DNA of 64,000 nt from Chloroflexota bacterium (GTDB lineage Bacteria > Chloroflexota > Anaerolineae > DUEN01), in the NCBI GenBank assembly GCA_013152435.1, contig JAADGJ010000062.1:18672-82671 (forward strand), read 5' to 3'. Position 1 is the stretch's first letter. The number at the start of each line of letters is the position of its first letter. Both the position numbers and the translations under genes were made by a program. Positions 9,851 to 19,853 of the stretch are shown one piece after another. A model generated the notes under the pieces. That model was not told the DNA's origin. It searched no databases and saw only the letters and a program-made list of their open reading frames with translations.

Positions 9851-10123
9851 TCACCGGTAGTCCTCCCGGCAGGTGAAGAGGTGAGGGCCGGGCGCGGAGA
9901 TGACCTGGCGCAGCTCGCCGAGGAAGCGATTCAGATCAAGGTTGTAGGCCGCCGCTACATCGGCCAGGGTGTCGAAGGGGGACATGGCGCAGCCGATGCA
10001 GGCCATTCGGTGGCGGAAGAAAACCTGCGCCGCTTGGGGCCAGTGTGAAAGCGTCTCAGCCACTGTCAAGCTGGCTTTAAGATCCGGGTGCTTCATAAGC
10101 GATTCCTCGGCTTGTGGGGGCAC
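9851..10123 (-). CDS. DUF1858 domain protein (hybrid-cluster-protein-associated redox disulfide domain, ScdA N-terminal-like)
   Basis: 90 aa. MACIGCAMSPFDTLADVAAAYNLDLNRFLGEL matches the small CxxC DUF1858 domain commonly found near NO/N2O-stress genes. Confidence 0.65.
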   Translation of the reverse strand: MPPQAEESLMKHPDLKASLTVAETLSHWPQAAQVFFRHRMACIGCAMSPFDTLADVAAAYNLDLNRFLGELRQVISAPGPHLFTCREDYR

Positions 10124-10861: not shown

Positions 10862-11470
10862 TCAGTGCCCGCCTCCCGAGTGCTCGGTTTGCATGTCCTT
10901 ATCCTGCTGCGTGTCCTTCTGCATATCCATTTGCATGTCTTGCTTCGTGTCCGACTCCGACTCCGTGTCCATTTGCATGTCCATCTGCATGTCCTTGTCG
11001 TGCATGGAGCCGGACATCGTCATCTCGCCTGAGGCGAATCGCTCGTGTAGCTCCTTAAAGGACACGACCTCACCCTGGTTCTCAGCGGCCAGCTTCTTGG
11101 CCCGTTCCTCATCGCCGAGGGCTACCACGCCATATCCCATGGGCGTGTACAGGGCCTGGCTGATCACGAAGAACGCTTGATCGGCTTTCAGCCAATCCTC
11201 GGTCTCATAATCGTGCACCCAGAGCGTGCCCTCCTCCTGCTGGTCCAGCAGGAAGAGCACCATATCGCCGATGTCGTCGAAGCGACGTACCTCGCCCTGG
11301 GGTGTCACGTAGGCCGCCGCAAAGCGCGGCTCGCTGATGATCATGCGGCATTGATCGCAGGCATCTTCACCATACCGAATGTCAGGTGGCTTGTCAAGTG
11401 GTGGGCTTGCCTGACACCCCATGGAGACCAGGAGGATCGATAGGAGACCCAAGAAAATCCGTGACATCAT
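10862..11470 (-). CDS. nosL: NosL copper chaperone lipoprotein with a Met-rich repetitive C-terminal tail
   Basis: True start is ATGATG at 11470 (MMSRIFLGLLSILLVSMGC lipoprotein signal), which overlaps the nosY stop as ATGA. Has the NosL-like core (EDACDQCRM...YVTPQGEVRRFDDIGDMVLFL...WVHDYET). The C-terminus is DKDMQMDMQMDTESESDTKQDMQMDMQKDTQQDKDMQT. Confidence 0.75.
   Translation of the reverse strand: MMSRIFLGLLSILLVSMGCQASPPLDKPPDIRYGEDACDQCRMIISEPRFAAAYVTPQGEVRRFDDIGDMVLFLLDQQEEGTLWVHDYETEDWLKADQAFFVISQALYTPMGYGVVALGDEERAKKLAAENQGEVVSFKELHERFASGEMTMSGSMHDKDMQMDMQMDTESESDTKQDMQMDMQKDTQQDKDMQTEHSGGGH
10895..11010. repeat. Imperfect tandem microrepeat (GCATGTCC-like 9-12 nt units) encoding the Met/Asp/Gln-rich NosL tail
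   Basis: Repeated ...tgcatgtccttatcc...catttgcatgtcttg...catttgcatgtccatctgcatgtccttg... On the opposite strand it produces the artefactual HLHVLLRVRL ORF at 10820-11032. Confidence 0.6.
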
Positions 11471-12304: not shown

Positions 12305-14617
12305 TCATATCCTCTCTTGCAGGCTGTGCACGTCGAAATCTTCTACCGGGATGCCCGCCTGCGCCAGCAGGGAGATGGGCTTTCCCTTCTCACGGAGCGC
12401 GACGGGCACTCGCACCCCCGCCCCGTTTCGGCTGGCGGCGAACCCCTGTCCCTTCAGGAGCGCGATGGCGGCCTCGACCTGTTCGGCCGGCACGTGGAGT
12501 CGCAATTCGGTGTGTCTCCCCAGGTGCGCGTCCAGCTCGTCCGGCGAGCAGTCGGCCACGATCCGCCCGTTCTCCATGAGGAGCACGCGGTCGGCCAGGT
12601 TGACCACCTCGTCCAGGCGATGGGAGGAGAAGATGAGCGTCTTCCCCTTCTTCTTGACCTCGGCCAGCAGGGCCAGGATGTCCTCCCTCGCCCGGGCGTC
12701 CAGGTTCGTCGTCGGCTCGTCGAGCACCAGCAGCGGCGGATCGGCCAGCAGCGCCGCGGCCAGCGCGAGCCGTTGCTTCATCCCGCCGGATAGGGTCTGC
12801 ACCGCCTGGTGAACCACCGATGTGAGCCCCATCTCCTGCAGGGAGCGCTCGATGGATTCGGGCGAGGCCCCCTTGAGGTACGCGTAGAAGCGCATGGTCT
12901 CCCACACCGTCATATCGTCATAGAAGCTCAGCTCCTGGGGCACGAAGCCCATCTGTCGGCGCGCGGCCTTGCCCTCTCTCCGGACGTCGTGGCCTGCCAC
13001 GTGTACCGTTCCCTGGAAGGGAAGGAGCCCCAGCAGGCATCGGAGCGCGGTGGTCTTCCCCGCACCGTTCGCTCCCCATAACGCCACAGCTTGTCCGGCC
13101 TCAACATCGAACGAGAGTCGGTCCACGGCGACCAGTGAGCCGAAGCGCTTGGTCAGATCGCGAACGTGGATCATGAGTTCTCCCTCATTATTGGACAATC
13201 TCTTGCCTCCTCCCTGCCGCCTGATGGGAACCTGGGTGAGGAAAATCAGCATGGCGGCCAGGGCCAGCAGGCCAATGGACGGCACCCCCAGTTGCCGGGC
13301 GGCCTGTTGGGGGATGGCGGGGAGGCCCTCGGGTATGCGCGGCGCCATCAGCGGACGATCGTCCACCAGCTTCGGCTGCGGCTTGATCAGCGGGAACGCT
13401 CGGGCGGCGAAGTCCAGCGCCTGGGTCGCCGGGCTGTAATCGAACAGCCGCAACATCGGGTAGCGGTCCATAAGGTTCTCGAACAGCCGCGTGGCCCGGT
13501 AGGGAAGATCGCCGATCCCATCCTGGTCCGCGTCGTAGCCCGTGTAGTCGCTCCAATAGTTCCCCAGGCCGTTGACGGTCCAGATGTTCCCTTGCAGTTG
13601 TCCACCGCCCGACACGCCGACCTGTTCCCGATTCTCGATGAACCCGTTTTCAGTGAGGCGGTTGCGTCGTACCGATGGCTGGAACAGGATGCCGACATCG
13701 TTGAAAGCGAAGATGTTCCCGCGGAACAACACGGTGCTGTCGATCTCGCGCGGCGAGTTGTCCACGAACGCTCCCACGCGGTTGTCCAGGAAGAGGTTCT
13801 CCTCGATCACCGCGTCGTCCATGTCCTTGAGGCCGATGCCGAAGCCGCTGGGGCCGCGATTGTAGGCGAAGGTGTTCCGTCGTAAATGCAGGCGGCGGCT
13901 GTACATCAGGAAGGCGCCCACGGAGTTATTGGACAGCCGGTTCCCCTCGATGAGGGCATCATCGCAGTACATGAAGTGCAGGCCGTAGCGTCCTCCCTGG
14001 ATCACGTTCCCGCGCACGGTGAGGCGCTCCGAATACCAGAGCACCACGTCCCGGCCCTGCTCCACCACGTTGTCCTCCACCCGCACGTCATTGCTGTACC
14101 AGACCCGGATGGGATCCCCCCGGCGGGGCAGGGGCAGGTCCTTGCTATAGATCGTGTTCCCCCGGATCACGCTGCCGACCGCCTTGCGCAGGTAGATGCC
14201 GAACAGGGTTCCCTCTAGCCGGTTGCCCTCGACCACGACCTCCGGGGCTTCGACGGCGATGCCGGAGTTCTCCTGGTCCAGCGCGTCGCCGCTGTTTTGA
14301 ACCACGAACCCCTTCAGCATGGCGCCCCGGGCGGTCAGGCGGACCACGGTGCCCTGGCCGCCGCCGTCGATCACGGGCCAGCCATAGCCGATGATCTTGA
14401 CGCTTCGGTCTACCACCAGGGGACCGCTGTAAATACCCTCGCGCACCTCGATGGTGTCCCCATCCCGGGCCTCCGCCAGCGCCTCCGCGATGGTGCGGTA
14501 TGGCCCTTGCGGGGAGACGACCAGGGTCGCGGGGCCCTCCTGGGCCAGGAGCGGTGTGGCGCCGCTGGCCCACAGGAGGAGAGCTATCCCCAGGAACATC
14601 CAATTGCGACGTCGCAT
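12305..14617 (-). CDS. nosDF: NosD-NosF fusion: periplasmic right-handed beta-helix copper-processing protein fused via a TM helix to an ABC ATPase
   Basis: Single 770-aa ORF. Residues 1-~440 have a signal peptide plus NosD-like parallel beta-helix repeats (GNRLEG..., RGNTIYS..., VEDNVV..., RGNVIQGGRYGLHFMY..., EGNRLSNN...). There is a hydrophobic segment VPSIGLLALAAMLIFLTQV. Residues ~480-770 form an ABC ATPase with Walker A GANGAGKTT, signature LSGGMKQRL and Walker B LLVLDEPT. Confidence 0.8.
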   Translation of the reverse strand: MRRRNWMFLGIALLLWASGATPLLAQEGPATLVVSPQGPYRTIAEALAEARDGDTIEVREGIYSGPLVVDRSVKIIGYGWPVIDGGGQGTVVRLTARGAMLKGFVVQNSGDALDQENSGIAVEAPEVVVEGNRLEGTLFGIYLRKAVGSVIRGNTIYSKDLPLPRRGDPIRVWYSNDVRVEDNVVEQGRDVVLWYSERLTVRGNVIQGGRYGLHFMYCDDALIEGNRLSNNSVGAFLMYSRRLHLRRNTFAYNRGPSGFGIGLKDMDDAVIEENLFLDNRVGAFVDNSPREIDSTVLFRGNIFAFNDVGILFQPSVRRNRLTENGFIENREQVGVSGGGQLQGNIWTVNGLGNYWSDYTGYDADQDGIGDLPYRATRLFENLMDRYPMLRLFDYSPATQALDFAARAFPLIKPQPKLVDDRPLMAPRIPEGLPAIPQQAARQLGVPSIGLLALAAMLIFLTQVPIRRQGGGKRLSNNEGELMIHVRDLTKRFGSLVAVDRLSFDVEAGQAVALWGANGAGKTTALRCLLGLLPFQGTVHVAGHDVRREGKAARRQMGFVPQELSFYDDMTVWETMRFYAYLKGASPESIERSLQEMGLTSVVHQAVQTLSGGMKQRLALAAALLADPPLLVLDEPTTNLDARAREDILALLAEVKKKGKTLIFSSHRLDEVVNLADRVLLMENGRIVADCSPDELDAHLGRHTELRLHVPAEQVEAAIALLKGQGFAASRNGAGVRVPVALREKGKPISLLAQAGIPVEDFDVHSLQERI

Positions 14618-14621
14618 AGAT

Positions 14622-15290
14622 CTATCCTTCAGTCGGTGACCGCTCGGTGGCTTCCACCAGCGGCTTATAGGCTCGTCGATGGAAGTAGAGGCCCAGCAGG
14701 ATCAGGAACGAGGCCAATGCCGCCAGGTAGAACCCTCGATCTACGGAGGCAATGGTCTGGAACTGTCCGATTTTCCCCTCACCGAGCACGGGGGGAACGA
14801 ATGGCTCGATGGCGTTGCTCAGCGGCGCGCTGGGGTCCAGGTTCTGACCGAAATGGCGCAGCCAGAAGTACAGATCGCCCAGGAAGATGGCCGGGAACAG
14901 CAGGGCCGGCAGGGAGAGCAGCGCTGCCCACTGGTTGTGCACGTAGATCGCTGCGATGACCAGCAACGAGATCACCGCGATGGCGAAGATGCTCAGGGAG
15001 CGCTCCAGTTGTGCCGCCTCCTCCAGGGGGCGCATGCCGATATAGTGGTTCAGCCCGTCGATCTCTTTCACATCTCCGGTCATACGGTTCACGTAGACCT
15101 GGACCTCCAGCCCGTCCGGGTATTGGGGAGCCAGGAGCTTCAGTCGCCAGTAGGGCACGAAGATGGATACCAGCAGGCAGAAGGCTGCCAGTCCTAGGAA
15201 GACCGTGGGCAGGAGATAGCGTAACTGTTGTTCCGCCGTCTGCTCCGCAGGCAGGCGTGGCCCGATCAGCTTGTCCCATAACCCTGTCAT
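14622..15290 (-). CDS. nosB: NosB-like membrane protein (clade II nos clusters)
   Basis: 222-aa protein with ~4 TM helices. Its position immediately downstream of nosZ and upstream of nosD matches the nosB gene of clade II clusters. No informative motifs were found. Confidence 0.45.
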   Translation of the reverse strand: MTGLWDKLIGPRLPAEQTAEQQLRYLLPTVFLGLAAFCLLVSIFVPYWRLKLLAPQYPDGLEVQVYVNRMTGDVKEIDGLNHYIGMRPLEEAAQLERSLSIFAIAVISLLVIAAIYVHNQWAALLSLPALLFPAIFLGDLYFWLRHFGQNLDPSAPLSNAIEPFVPPVLGEGKIGQFQTIASVDRGFYLAALASFLILLGLYFHRRAYKPLVEATERSPTEG

Positions 15291-15371: not shown

Positions 15372-17420
15372 TTACGGTTGCACCAGGAAGTAGCCCGTCA
15401 TCTCCAGGTGCAGGGCAGAGCAGAACTCGGTGCAGTAGAAGGTGTAGACGCCGTCCTGGTCTGCCACGAACTCAAAGGTGGCCGTCTCTCCCGGCTCCAG
15501 GCTCAGGTTGATGTTGTACCCGGGCAGCGCGAAGCCGTGAGTGGCATCCTTGGCCCGCTCGATGTTGGTGATGTGCCAGATCACGCGGTCGCCCTTCTTC
15601 ACCTCGATGCGCTCGGGGTTGTAGTGGCTGCGCACGGCCGTCATCCAGATCTCCACGGTGTTGCCGTTGCGCACCACCCGCTCCTGTCCGGCCTCCACCG
15701 CGTTGGGATCCTTGCTCTGGGTGTTCGGGTTCCATCCGATCTCCGGATATACCTCCCAGGGCTGGAGCTTGTCGGCTTTGATGATCTGCGCGTAGTGCGG
15801 CTCGCCGATACCGATGGGCATATCATACAGGAGCTGGAGCTGGTCCCCCGGCTGAGAGATGTCGATGAGCTGGAAGTTCTGCGGCAGCAGCGGCCCCACC
15901 GTCAGGAACCGGTCCACCGACCACTTGTTCAGGGAGACCAGGTACTTGCCGTCCGGGCTGACCGTGTCCCCCTCGGCGGCGGCGATGTGCCCCACGTTGT
16001 AGTGGACGGGGATCTTGGTGACCAGGGACCACTCGGGATCGCTGTGCAACTCCTGGTAGGGGCCACCCAGCGTCCAGCGGGCCACCGCGCTGTCCAGGAA
16101 GAGGCTGGTGTAGGCGTACCCCTGGTTGTCGAACTGGGTGTGGAGAGGCCCCAGACCCAGCTCCACCTGGGCCTCCATCACATCGTCCAGGTTCAGGATG
16201 GTCACGCCGTACTGGTCCTTCTCGCCCGCGCCGCTCTCGATGGCCTTCTGGATCTTGTCGAAGCTGTACACGGTCACGTGGGGATCGAGCTTACCCGAGA
16301 CCACGATGTAGTCCCCGCCGGGTGCCACATCGACGCCGTGAGGGCTCTTGGGCTCCGGGGCGAAGTACAGCAGCCCTTCCGCGATCGACGTCTCCAGCGG
16401 GATCACGTTGAACCCGTTGACCTGGGTCACCTGGCCCGCCGCCGCCACCTCGGCGGCCTTCTTGAGGTTGATGATGTGGAGGTAATCCATGTCCTGCTGA
16501 GACGCGCCCGCCTCGAACGGAGGATTCCCCTCCTCGACGCCGCCGGTGCTCATCTCCGTGTTGAAGGAGTTGCAGAACACCCACCCTTCGCTCACCTTCT
16601 TGCCGGCGTCACAGATGTCCTGCCAGTAGGGGGGCAGCTCCATGGCGAAGGATTCCTCCGGCAGGATGCGGCCCTTCTCCCGATCGAACTTCCAGAAGGT
16701 GATCATGCCGCGGTAGGCCTCCGCGTAGTCGTTCAGGGAGGCGTACGTCCAGCCCAGCGGCGTGGCATACTGGCCGCCCTCGATCACCCACTCGGTGTTG
16801 GGGGTGGCCATGGTCCCGCCGTGATCGTTGATGGCGATGGGGTTCTTGACGATCTGCTTGGTCTCAAAATCTCGCAGATCGATGACCGCCACCCGGGCGT
16901 TGGCCTTGTCGTTGATGAACAGGAATTGGCCATCATAGTCTCCGCCCGTCTCGCTCAGGGCCGGATGATGGGTATCTCCCCAGGTGATCTTCTTCCCATT
17001 CACCGCCCCCTCGGCCAGCACTCGGTCCGTCTCCTCCGCGCCGTACCCCCAGCCCTGCCATGGCTCGGGCGTGAACACGCCGATCACCTTGAGCAGGCGC
17101 ATGGACGGCAGCCCGATGACCAGCACCTGGCCGGAGTGACCGCCGGAGGAGAACATCACGTAGTCGTCCTGCTTCCCCGTGGGGAGGTACGTCTTCAGGG
17201 CGGCGACGACGTCATCCGGCGTGAGTCCGCGTTCCTGGGCGATCGCCATGGCATCGCCGGATAGCTCCGTGGCTGGTTCGGCCACTGCCGTGGTAGCCTC
17301 CGGTGTGGCAGCCGGCTCCCCTGGCCCCCGCACGATGATCGCGACGACGATCAGGACGATGATGACGATGAGGGCCGCGACGAGAAGGGGGAGATACCGT
17401 TGCAAACTCTGGCTTTGCAT
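15372..17420 (-). CDS. nosZ: Nitrous-oxide reductase NosZ, Sec-type (clade II)
   Basis: The ORF spans 15372-17540, but the likely start is Met41 (ATG ~17420, behind AAGGAGG), followed by a hydrophobic anchor LPLLVAALIVIIVLIVVAIIV with no twin-arginine motif. It has the seven-bladed propeller CuZ region and a C-terminal CuA motif (YTFYCTEFCSALHLEMTGYF). Confidence 0.9.
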   Translation of the reverse strand: MQSQSLQRYLPLLVAALIVIIVLIVVAIIVRGPGEPAATPEATTAVAEPATELSGDAMAIAQERGLTPDDVVAALKTYLPTGKQDDYVMFSSGGHSGQVLVIGLPSMRLLKVIGVFTPEPWQGWGYGAEETDRVLAEGAVNGKKITWGDTHHPALSETGGDYDGQFLFINDKANARVAVIDLRDFETKQIVKNPIAINDHGGTMATPNTEWVIEGGQYATPLGWTYASLNDYAEAYRGMITFWKFDREKGRILPEESFAMELPPYWQDICDAGKKVSEGWVFCNSFNTEMSTGGVEEGNPPFEAGASQQDMDYLHIINLKKAAEVAAAGQVTQVNGFNVIPLETSIAEGLLYFAPEPKSPHGVDVAPGGDYIVVSGKLDPHVTVYSFDKIQKAIESGAGEKDQYGVTILNLDDVMEAQVELGLGPLHTQFDNQGYAYTSLFLDSAVARWTLGGPYQELHSDPEWSLVTKIPVHYNVGHIAAAEGDTVSPDGKYLVSLNKWSVDRFLTVGPLLPQNFQLIDISQPGDQLQLLYDMPIGIGEPHYAQIIKADKLQPWEVYPEIGWNPNTQSKDPNAVEAGQERVVRNGNTVEIWMTAVRSHYNPERIEVKKGDRVIWHITNIERAKDATHGFALPGYNINLSLEPGETATFEFVADQDGVYTFYCTEFCSALHLEMTGYFLVQP

Positions 17421-17562
17421 GGGCAAGAACCTCCTTTCTTTGGCTCTGTGGCCGGGAACTTGAAGGTAGCACCGGGGGAAAGTGCCCATGGTGCCGCGTG
17501 AAGAGGCCACGTTCAGTGGCCACTCCTCCCGACCCAGCATACGACAAACCGAGGGAGGTTTC

Positions 17563-17597: not shown

Positions 17598-18356
17598 TTA
17601 TCGTGCGGTGGGGGCTTCTGCGGGGATGTCCGGAGGCAGATCTTCAGCGATAGTCACCAGGCCATGAGGCCTCAGTACGACCACGCGGGCTCGTCCGCTG
17701 GCGATGAGTCCCTGCTCCTCCCATCGGCTCAGGACGCGACTGACCGTGTACAGGGTCGTGCCCGTCATCTCCGCCAGGTCCTGGCGGGTCAGAGCCAGAT
17801 CGATCAGGATCCCGCCTTCCACCTTGCGCCCGAGCTGGCGCACCAGGCGGAGCAGAGCGCGGGCGATGCGTCGCTCCACCCGCTCCGTCACCAGCTCTCG
17901 AAGGCGGTCTTGCAGATCTCGAACGTGTTGTGCCATCAGATCGATCGCGTTCAGGGCCAGTCGGGGGTAGATCTCCATCAGCCGGGCCATGCGCTCCCCG
18001 TCCCAGGCCAGCGCCTCACAATCCTCCATCGCCTCGGCCGATACGGGGTACGACATGGCGCTCAGCACCGCGATGCACCCGAACATGCGCCCCGGCTCGA
18101 TGAATCCCAGGACGGTCTGGTGTCCCTCTGGAGTGACCTGGGTCAGCTTCACCTGCCCCCGGACGAGCACGTAGAGGAATGAGGCGGCGTCGTCCTGGAG
18201 GAAGAAGAAGCTCCCCCGGGCCACCCGTTTGAAGTAGGCGGTCTGGATCACGTGCATCAGGGTGCTCGGATCCAGGCCCCGGAACAGGTAGATCCGTTGC
18301 AGGTGCTCGACCTGTTGGCTGAGAGGTTCAGAAGCGCTCATGCTTGGATTGTACAC
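17598..18356 (-). CDS. Crp/Fnr-family transcriptional regulator (Dnr/NnrR-like, no Fe-S cysteine cluster)
   Basis: 252 aa. Has an N-terminal cNMP-binding beta-barrel (RGSFFFLQDDAASFLYVLVRGQVKL) and a C-terminal HTH (TRQDLAEMTGTTLYTVSRVLSRWEEQGLI). It lies directly upstream of nosZ on the same strand. Confidence 0.8.
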   Translation of the reverse strand: MYNPSMSASEPLSQQVEHLQRIYLFRGLDPSTLMHVIQTAYFKRVARGSFFFLQDDAASFLYVLVRGQVKLTQVTPEGHQTVLGFIEPGRMFGCIAVLSAMSYPVSAEAMEDCEALAWDGERMARLMEIYPRLALNAIDLMAQHVRDLQDRLRELVTERVERRIARALLRLVRQLGRKVEGGILIDLALTRQDLAEMTGTTLYTVSRVLSRWEEQGLIASGRARVVVLRPHGLVTIAEDLPPDIPAEAPTAR

Positions 18357-18506: not shown

Positions 18507-19853
18507 CTACCATGTGCCCGACGGGCGAGGACGCCAGTGACCATCCCCTGAGGGGGGCCTGTAGGGGTGCGATGGGGTTGACTCCAGGCGTGCCGGCGTC
18601 GTCAGCGCCGCCTCGATCGCGTCGTCCCGGCGCACGACGTAGGCGGGGATGTTGCTCGCGTACAGGAGCCTCAGCGTCTCGTGCCATGACGGCGCGGGCC
18701 CGAACGTGTTCGCCGCCAATAGCACGGCCACGCTGCGCACGCCGCGACGCCCCAACTCCCGCAGTGCGATGACCCAGTCCGGGGATATGGAGGGCGTGAT
18801 CGCGATGAGGGTCACGCTCCGGTTCAGGTGCTGTCCTTCCATGGCGATCACCTGGGCGAACGGCATGCGGCCCTGCGCCTCGACCACCGCCAGGGTCTCC
18901 AGGATTCGATCCAGCTGCCGCTCGCCGCGATCCGCCTGGATCACCTCCCGGGTTTGGGCGTGCGTGATGAATCCCACGGCCCGGTTGCGGCGCAGGAAGT
19001 GGCGAGCCAGCGATGCGGCCGCCGTGACCCCGTACTCCTCTGTGCTGGGGATCAGCTCCAGGCGGGTGGGCTCCCGGCGCAGCAGGAACGGCTGTCGGAA
19101 GCCGTTGTCGGTGGGCGGCGTCCAGGGCGCCTCGACGTGGACCGATTGGTCCATATCGAGGAAGATCCAGACGTCGGCCGTGGGATCGAGCTCGAACTCC
19201 TTCACGATCAGCCGGCCTGTGCGGGCGGTGGAGGGCCAGTGGATGCGGCTGAAGGAATCCCCCGGCTGATAATCGCGCACGCCGGAGACGTTCGTGGTCA
19301 CGTGGTGGATGCGGCGTCGCATGGCATCGCCCCCGGGCATCTCGCCCACGGGGAGCATGAAGCCGGGCAGCTCCACCGTTGCCGGATAGATGACCAGGGA
19401 GGACGTGGCGGGCAGCACGCGCTCCATCCGGAACAGCCCCAGGGGGTCGCCGGAGGCCAGGACCATGGGGCCCAGCGTATAGCGGCCGCGCTGCCGGCAT
19501 AGTGTGCGCACCAGCCAGCGCTGCCTTCGATGGCCGCCCAGGGCGCTGATCACCCGGCTCGTGTGATGCCCGGGCAGATCGGACAGGTCGCGAATCTCCA
19601 GCCACAGCTTGGGGAATCGGGAGCGGTTTTGGACCTCGAACTGCTCCTCCACGAATCGTCCGACCTGTGAGCGAAGCGAGCGCGTATATCGCCTGATCTG
19701 GACCCAGTTGACTCCCGACCAGGCCCACACGAAGGAGAAGATCACCACAGCGGTGATCAGATAGGCGACCGTATATGCGATTTCCCGGCCGGTGTTCAGT
19801 GCGAAGATCCAGGCGGCCAGGCCGAGGAGGATGACGCCCCATGAGCGTCGCAA
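18507..19853 (-). CDS. DUF58 domain protein (vWA-like, MoxR-associated)
   Basis: 448 aa. Has two N-terminal TM helices and the DUF58 signature DYQPGDSFSRIHWPSTARTGRLIVKEFE. It is directly downstream of the MoxR ATPase. Confidence 0.75.
   Translation of the reverse strand: MRRSWGVILLGLAAWIFALNTGREIAYTVAYLITAVVIFSFVWAWSGVNWVQIRRYTRSLRSQVGRFVEEQFEVQNRSRFPKLWLEIRDLSDLPGHHTSRVISALGGHRRQRWLVRTLCRQRGRYTLGPMVLASGDPLGLFRMERVLPATSSLVIYPATVELPGFMLPVGEMPGGDAMRRRIHHVTTNVSGVRDYQPGDSFSRIHWPSTARTGRLIVKEFELDPTADVWIFLDMDQSVHVEAPWTPPTDNGFRQPFLLRREPTRLELIPSTEEYGVTAAASLARHFLRRNRAVGFITHAQTREVIQADRGERQLDRILETLAVVEAQGRMPFAQVIAMEGQHLNRSVTLIAITPSISPDWVIALRELGRRGVRSVAVLLAANTFGPAPSWHETLRLLYASNIPAYVVRRDDAIEAALTTPARLESTPSHPYRPPSGDGHWRPRPSGTW

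Follow-up and report, generated by a model that had tools for sequence, protein, structure and literature searches.

Can a periplasmic copper-delivery protein and the cytoplasmic ATPase of the same transport system be encoded as one chain that crosses the membrane, and what becomes of the subunit ratio of the system if they are? This question is raised by nosDF, a minus-strand gene in a 64,000-nucleotide stretch of DNA from a Chloroflexota metagenome-assembled genome (MAG), which comprises positions 18,672 to 82,671 of contig JAADGJ010000062.1 (GenBank assembly GCA_013152435.1) and is referred to as the window in this text. The NosDFY system builds the CuZ site of nitrous oxide (N2O) reductase, NosZ; no other biological sink for nitrous oxide is known. 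Mechanistic knowledge of this system comes mostly from clade I Pseudomonas, where NosD is separate and soluble and is present as one copy on a NosF2Y2 transporter. In nosDF, NosD and the ATP-binding cassette (ABC) ATPase NosF are joined through a transmembrane (TM) helix within one open reading frame (ORF). The evidence described here supports, with a probability of roughly 85%, the reading that nosDF, part of a clade II nos cluster in this Chloroflexota MAG, is a true fusion gene that evolution has maintained.

The nosDF reading frame starts with ATG and encodes 770 amino acids (aa) without an internal stop. Its product is 100% identical to NCBI entry NOZ28162.1, a Chloroflexota MAG protein named just “NosD”. 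A preliminary description of this DNA had read a signal peptide, a NosD-like region, one hydrophobic helix and an ABC ATPase in this single frame and had expected a product of ~84 kDa; the motifs quoted in it (the hydrophobic segment, GANGAGKTT, LSGGMKQRL and LLVLDEPT) are all present, domain searches confirm both halves, and the mass computed for the precursor is 84.6 kDa. The NosD half covers the full TIGR04247 profile at aa 43-424 (429.3 bits vs a cutoff of 300) and matches PF05048 with 153 bits (cutoff 23.6, E=1e-44). In a sequence search of the Protein Data Bank (PDB), aa 57-425 align to residues 46-421 of the 436 residues of P. stutzeri NosD (7o0y_A, E=4e-35). An AlphaFold2 (AF2) model built from a 54-sequence alignment has a mean predicted local distance difference test score (pLDDT) of 90 and shows a beta-helix at 31-335, made of regular three-strand coils whose pLDDT exceeds 90, followed by the C-terminal helices of NosD at 378-407. 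In the signal-peptide region, the model has a helix at 2-17, after which confidence is low at 19-26. The family motif PQPKLxDxxPLMAP..GLPA starts a short way upstream of a Pro-rich tether, and within the 54-sequence alignment P409, P413, D419 and P422 are invariant while P415, K416 and L417 are nearly so.

The ATPase half begins after approximately 57 residues that have no P. stutzeri counterpart and that separate the NosD-aligned from the NosF-aligned region. It matches ABC_tran (PF00005) at aa 499-637 (E=1e-32), and in the PDB search aa 483-708 align to residues 4-228 of P. stutzeri NosF (7o0y_B, E=1.2e-40); both PDB alignments lie well outside chance expectation. The AF2 model of this half has a nucleotide-binding domain and a C-terminal domain. 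Structural comparison of this half with 7o0y_B by Foldseek gives 294 columns with a TMt of 0.76 and 32% identity. Walker A, the Q-loop (Q561), the ABC signature, Walker B with its catalytic Glu, and the H-loop (H666) are all present and are invariant in the 54-sequence alignment. The NCBIfam matches of this half (drrA and others) all lie below their cutoffs, with no NosF-specific model among the results, and ABCA-type and other ABC ATPases match it as well or better in the PDB search and in Foldseek. By sequence, fold and gene context taken together, NosDF is both a NosD and a NosF.

Whether this arrangement is a true fusion or the outcome of a missing stop or a frameshift had been left undecided in the preliminary description, and it can now be settled in favour of a fusion. 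Two independent contigs carrying further members of the 90% cluster of NosDF, one 99.9% identical (P0122) and the other 98.2% identical (P0121), both encode 770 aa in frame; the latter differs by 14 substitutions, 6 of them in aa 425-485, and by no indel. The same fusion was found in related genomes: NosD and ABC_tran occupy one chain in 120/120 of the best database homologues (49-71% identity, 696-855 aa), and 12/12 relatives for which DNA was fetched have the fused gene in a shared gene order of nosZ, a membrane protein of ~220 aa, nosDF and nosY. These 12 relatives come from different samples and assemblers (SPAdes, megahit, Logan, long-read). For P0016, the fused gene was found on 9 contigs, and for P0078 it lies on a 3.76-Mb contig with 42x coverage. 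Across the homologues the linker that follows the TM helix is poorly conserved and variable in length (16-86 aa), yet the frame is always kept. Homology with unfused relatives places the expected stop and start at 13172-13190 rather than at 13250-13350, where an indel check had been proposed; the fused sequence, within window 13150-13320, reads GAGGGAGAACTCATGATC. The frame is intact in the independent assemblies and in all close relatives, and an artefact from a frameshift or a missing stop can therefore be excluded for practical purposes. The idea that truly separate genes overlapping as ATGA were merged by a one-nucleotide indel error draws on the MAG source and on the single base in a short spacer by which fused and unfused loci differ, but against the frame common to two independent contigs, the uniformly fused homologues and relatives, and linkers of such different lengths that never leave the frame, it has a negligible chance of being correct.

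The layout of the chain across the membrane, with NosD periplasmic and NosF cytoplasmic as originally proposed, is borne out by several predictions. A hydrophobic segment lies between the two domains in 120/120 fused homologues, with a Kyte-Doolittle (KD) value of at least 1.6 in 115 of them and a median of 2.08 for the best 19-aa mean. In NosDF, the segment first quoted as hydrophobic, VPSIGLLALAAMLIFLTQV, is located at aa 445-463, and AF2 predicts a single helix of 23 residues at 440-462, with a disordered stretch after it. Lys and Arg residues are distributed as the positive-inside rule predicts in 111/120 homologues, i.e. more follow the helix than precede it, with a mean of 0.98 in the 15 residues before the helix vs 3.6 in the 15 after. 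The signal sequence, the hydrophobic segment, the charge distribution and the AF2 helix together make a topology of NosD outside, TM helix, and NosF inside well supported. Export of the NosD part to the periplasmic side is likewise predicted from the basic and hydrophobic N-terminal signal and from the distribution of Lys and Arg around the TM helix.

The origin of the fusion can be traced in relatives that were collected with NosD alone. A scan of one genome for each species with an alignment restricted to NosD gave 551 relatives, of which the best 80 loci were kept; 77 of these could be classified, as 24 NosD-NosF fusions, 4 longer fusions and 49 unfused loci. The titles of the fused loci name Chloroflexota, Planctomycetota, Thermoanaerobaculia, Calditrichaeota, KSB1, Poribacteria, Elusimicrobiota and Armatimonadota. 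In 49/49 cases, unfused NosD closes with the same tether rich in Pro, then a strong TM helix and lastly a basic tail. Because every unfused relative ends in it, sequence comparison identifies the TM helix as a pre-existing C-terminal anchor of this NosD lineage and not as an addition that came with the fusion. The helix noted between NosD and NosF is thus real, whereas its interpretation as a connector specific to the fusion is ruled out. A TM helix has also been described on all five NosD proteins of Bacillus azotoformans by Heylen and Keltjens (PMC3475470).

The nosD stop and the nosF start overlap as ATGA or GTGA in 34/48 unfused loci, typically in the form GGAGG-N6-ATGA, whereas fused relatives have GGAGG-N7-ATG, in which the spacer is one base longer. 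Comparison of these loci shows the ancestral arrangement to have been a nosD with a TM tail overlapping nosF as GGAGG-N6-ATGA; the one extra spacer base removes the stop and joins nosF in frame. One unfused locus (L002) is nested among fused relatives and reads GGT TGA GGC ATG in frame at its split site (L002:7350-7410), with TGA one codon before the nosF ATG, which indicates that one point mutation divided an already fused gene anew. Parsimony on a neighbour-joining tree of the NosD domain requires at least 9 changes between the fused and unfused states, and at least 11 when extra relatives are added; the tree is a quick distance tree and the counts are rough lower bounds. In a further locus (L065:6001-7707), NosD is fused to the first half of an ABC ATPase only (ABC_tran profile positions 1-71 of 137), and this ORF is probably a broken fusion or a pseudogene. 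In the window itself, nosY ends and nosL begins within a shared ATGA (11467-11470), the same coupling that one extra base has turned into a fusion at nosD/nosF in the relatives.

A fusion of this kind had been expected to hard-wire the stoichiometry of NosDFY. The covalent link does set NosD:NosF at 1:1; however, this conflicts with the ratio in the solved complex and is not simple hard-wiring. PDB chains and entries for P. stutzeri number 16/16 for NosD, 30/15 for NosF and 34/17 for NosY, and these chain counts give 1 NosD : 2 NosF : 2 NosY. A second, stand-alone nosF or nosD was searched for in the 64-kb window by tblastn and none was found at E <= 1e-3. Within nosDF, a Shine-Dalgarno (SD)-like element precedes an in-frame ATG, the codon of Met482, at the beginning of the NosF part. 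This internal SD is at least as strong as the SDs at real gene starts of the nos cluster, and with its ATG it is a relic of the ancestral nosF start, possibly still active.

Conservation of the internal start was assessed by requiring a start codon at the old nosF start and a GGAG/GAGG core 4-15 nt upstream. This combination occurs in 9/13 fused genes of the window's clade (69%), in 31/48 genuine nosF starts of unfused loci (65%) and in 4/25 more distant fused loci (16%), and its background frequency at in-frame codons of the same genes is 0.108. The binomial probability of 9/13 against this background is ~1e-6 if the 13 related sequences are treated as independent. The amino-acid contexts that encode the SD core vary (EGE, GGE, GGT, GGI, GGG, GGD, REA, QGD). 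In a position profile of the window's clade, the information peak is confined to positions -12..-8 from the ATG (0.65-1.38 bits), and other linker positions mostly carry 0.05-0.3 bits, none above 0.67. Within the peak lies the third, synonymous position of a GGA codon, which is A in 10/13 sequences; these genes strongly prefer GGC, e.g. 58 GGC vs 5 GGA in L084. Since all positions share one phylogeny and yet the peak appears only there, a constraint at the nucleotide level is indicated at the internal SD. The signal is specific to the window's clade as judged from these alignments. The Met482 column holds M 56, L 37, V 12, I 7 and other residues 8 times among the 120 homologues, and among 25-26 distant fused loci only 9 keep a start codon at the old nosF start; both counts rule out an internal ATG as a feature of the whole family.

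These observations suggest that a free NosF of 289 aa is probably also made from Met482 in the window's clade. A more specific proposal, which we put somewhat short of an even chance, is that nosDF is a two-product gene whose full-length NosD-TM-NosF and free NosF assemble as an asymmetric [NosD-TM-NosF][NosF][NosY]2, so that the 1:2:2 ratio is kept and the copper-delivery head is tethered to one ATPase. If this two-product model is true, lineages could switch between fused and split genes by single-base changes while both products are made either way. Some lineages would afterwards give up the internal start and settle on 2:2:2 complexes, or on dimers of single-chain NosD-NosF-NosY that carry two NosD heads.

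Several points weigh against this reading of the locus. The fused examples all come from MAGs or metagenomes, and Fontivita pretiosa (L042), the sole cultured isolate in the set, is unfused. The full-length 84-kDa chain and the free NosF are both predicted products. The 13 sequences of the SD test are related and the binomial probability overstates the significance, for which the positional profile is a partial control. Gly at -4/-3 is also common where Met is replaced by Leu, Val or Ile, and a Gly-Gly in front of the ATPase could matter for its structure. Committed fusions and triple fusions further imply that free NosF is not required in principle.

The triple fusions, found at 4 loci, each encode NosD, ABC_tran and a NosY-type ABC2_membrane_2 domain in one ORF that exceeds 1,000 aa. 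They have the NosD-TM-NosF architecture in common with the window nosDF but extend into the NosY permease and are without the conserved internal SD of the window's clade. Because nosF start signals have been lost in distant fused lineages and in the triple fusions, a strict ratio of 1:1 or 1:1:1 must be viable there. This bears directly on the strongest competing explanation, in which only the full-length chain is made and forms an obligate homodimer, (NosD-TM-NosF)2(NosY)2, with two NosD heads, the internal SD and ATG being a non-functional relic or having another role. Its chances are clearly below even. In its favour, distant fused lineages are without the start codon (16/25) and the SD, NosD, NosF and NosY in one chain in four lineages show that 1:1:1 works in nature, and the Gly at -4/-3 persists where Met has been lost. 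What it accommodates poorly is that the window's clade keeps the SD core and start as often as real nosF starts do (69% vs 65%), that a synonymous position is conserved, and that the solved homologous complex has one NosD on the NosY dimer. Improbable by comparison is a precursor that is inserted at full length and then cut in the cytoplasmic linker, so that a TM-anchored NosD and a free NosF result as in unfused species. With its disorder (pLDDT below 50), varying length and basic character, the linker should be accessible to proteases, and the free interconversion of fused and unfused states in evolution suggests that they are nearly equivalent; however, the linker shows no conserved cleavage motif, and to our knowledge linker cleavage has no precedent in NosDFY.

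In known systems, the NosDFY complex is needed for CuZ assembly in NosZ, and Cu(I) goes from NosL to NosD, which sits on the NosFY ABC transporter (PMC8457098, PMC13068155, bioRxiv 10.64898/2025.12.16.694761). Extended to nosDF, this biology would have the Sec system export the NosD part while the TM helix acts as a stop-transfer sequence that leaves NosF in the cytoplasm, where it would dock on a dimer of NosY, the product of the next gene. NosL would pass Cu(I) to NosD, and NosD, driven by ATP hydrolysis in NosF, would hand the copper to apo-NosZ, building CuZ. The TM helix of the chain itself would hold NosD in the membrane and tie it covalently to one NosF subunit. Nucleotide-level conservation suggests that the old nosF ribosome-binding site and ATG are probably still used and supply the free 289-aa NosF, and the asymmetric assembly could in this way reproduce 1:2:2 with NosD covalently tethered.

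The P. stutzeri NosDFY(L) system (PDB 7o0y and related) has its components and their order of action in common with that of the window, and NosL is encoded alongside. In P. stutzeri, NosD, NosF and NosY are separate chains at 1:2:2, whereas in the window a TM helix anchors NosD and its chain runs on covalently into NosF. The 436-aa NosD of P. stutzeri extends only 15 residues past the aligned region and is hence without the TM helix, and the separate soluble NosD chain that characterises its complex is absent from NosDF. The P. stutzeri cluster belongs to clade I and that of the window to clade II, with a Sec-type NosZ. Unfused clade II pairs, such as those of Fontivita pretiosa and Ardenticatena (L008), are closer to nosDF: the NosD domain, Pro-rich tether, TM anchor and basic tail are shared, and nosF follows directly with a GGAGG SD upstream of its start, as in the window's family. 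They differ in that the nosD stop overlaps the nosF start (ATGA), while in the window an extra base puts the genes in frame. In-frame internal initiation that gives two isoforms from one bacterial gene is known, for example, for CheA (long and short forms), ClpB and IF2. In such genes an SD and a start codon lie inside the ORF and in frame, and a full-length and a shorter C-terminal product are made; for nosDF the same is suggested by sequence conservation. We know of no described precedent for internal initiation that supplies the second ATPase subunit of an ABC transporter.

Fusions of operon neighbours are common, and the fusion in itself is no great surprise. NosDF is a NosDFY system in a new covalent architecture, and specialist interest lies in its layout across the membrane, in its disagreement with the solved 1:2:2 complex, in the internal start that is conserved, and in the NosD-NosF-NosY forms made of a single chain. 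A full-text literature search, with most subscription journals outside its coverage, found no paper on a NosD-NosF fusion, a triple fusion or an internal start. The family shows that in many organisms of clade II, among them Chloroflexota, Planctomycetota and Armatimonadota, NosD is membrane-anchored and often joined covalently to NosF and, in some lineages, also to NosY in a single chain, and these fusions raise the question of whether the 1:2:2 architecture is universal. As linked constructs from nature, in which the proximity of subunits is fixed, they are useful for structural work, and N2O-reductase maturation systems could become simpler to express heterologously with their help. The sequences are public. 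For annotation, the naming of fused proteins as just “NosD” at NCBI makes nosF wrongly appear to be missing from such genomes; one homologue (P0105) is also annotated in IMG. The features of nosDF, its neighbours and the triple fusions are listed in Table 1.

Table 1. Location of nosDF, its parts and neighbouring genes in the window, and of triple fusions in other loci
Feature	Location	Strand	Evidence or remark
nosDF: NosD, TM helix and NosF in one ORF	12305..14617	-	ORF, domain searches, PDB alignment, AF2
Signal peptide, aa 1-25, MRRRNWMFLGIALLLWASGATPLLA	14543..14617	-	hydrophobic window KD 1.8; putative cleavage site
NosD periplasmic right-handed beta-helix domain, aa 43-424	13346..14491	-	TIGR04247, Pfam NosD and Beta_helix, PDB 7o0y_A, AF2
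Pro-rich periplasmic tether, conserved, aa 425-439	13301..13345	-	family alignments
Single TM helix, aa 440-462	13232..13300	-	AF2 helix; KD up to 2.2
Cytoplasmic linker, basic, disordered, aa 463-481, VPIRRQGGGKRLSNNEGEL	13175..13231	-	pLDDT below 50 at 464-478
Internal SD-like element and start codon, GAGGGAG-N5-ATG, ATG = Met482	13172..13186	-	sequence conservation
NosF ABC ATPase, aa 482-770: nucleotide-binding domain and C-terminal R-like domain	12308..13174	-	
Walker A	13052-13075	-	GANGAGKTT
ABC signature	12779-12793	-	LSGGM
Walker B	12716-12733	-	LLVLDE634
Crp/Fnr-family regulator, upstream of nosZ	17598..18356	-	cNMP_binding and HTH_Crp_2; same position in L081
nosZ, clade II (Sec-dependent)	15372..17540	-	TIGR04246 868 bits vs cutoff 625
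222-aa membrane protein, between nosZ and nosDF	14622..15290	-	four hydrophobic segments; nosB-like by position only
nosY, ABC-2 permease, 277 aa	11467..12300	-	ABC2_membrane_2 E=3e-29; PDB 7o0y_D E=1e-27
nosL copper chaperone, ~202 aa from MMSRIF	10862..11470	-	Pfam NosL E=5.5e-17
Cytochrome c, 134 aa	10416..10820	-	Pfam Cytochrome_CBB3 and Cytochrom_C; after nosL in relatives too
Triple fusion	L051:3357-6443		Armatimonadota
Triple fusion	L054:6001-9186		Armatimonadota
Triple fusion	L068:6001-9108		Armatimonadota
Triple fusion	L032:6001-9051		Anaerolineae chromosome; 11 N in ORF

The neighbours of nosDF all lie on the same strand and form a clade II nos cluster. The inspected 8.6-19.9 kb region of the window holds the cytochrome c and the 222-aa membrane protein. 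NosZ is classified from its profile scores as the Sec-dependent type, its score of 434 bits against the Tat-type model TIGR04244 being below the cutoff. The nosZ ORF has an N-terminal extension of 40 codons (window 17360-17540, minus strand) and the likely start is M41 (17420); a very hydrophobic 21-residue segment, LPLLVAALIVIIVLIVVAIIV, follows M41 and may be a signal anchor instead of a cleaved signal peptide. The 222-aa membrane protein has no Pfam or NCBIfam match. A protein of 194-229 aa occupies the same position in 11/12 relative loci (L081, L083-L092), and in the remaining one (L082) the contig ends inside it. The start of nosY lies 4 nt past the nosDF stop. The tail of NosL (window 10865-11023, minus strand) comprises 53 residues with 11 Met, DMQMDMQ-type repeats and a terminal GGGH, and from its sequence it looks like an extra Cu(I)-binding segment. 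Downstream of the cytochrome c gene lies a DUF1858 gene of 90 aa (window 9851-10123, minus strand), and its counterpart in a relative (L081:10454-11125) encodes a 223-aa protein with DUF1858 and hemerythrin.

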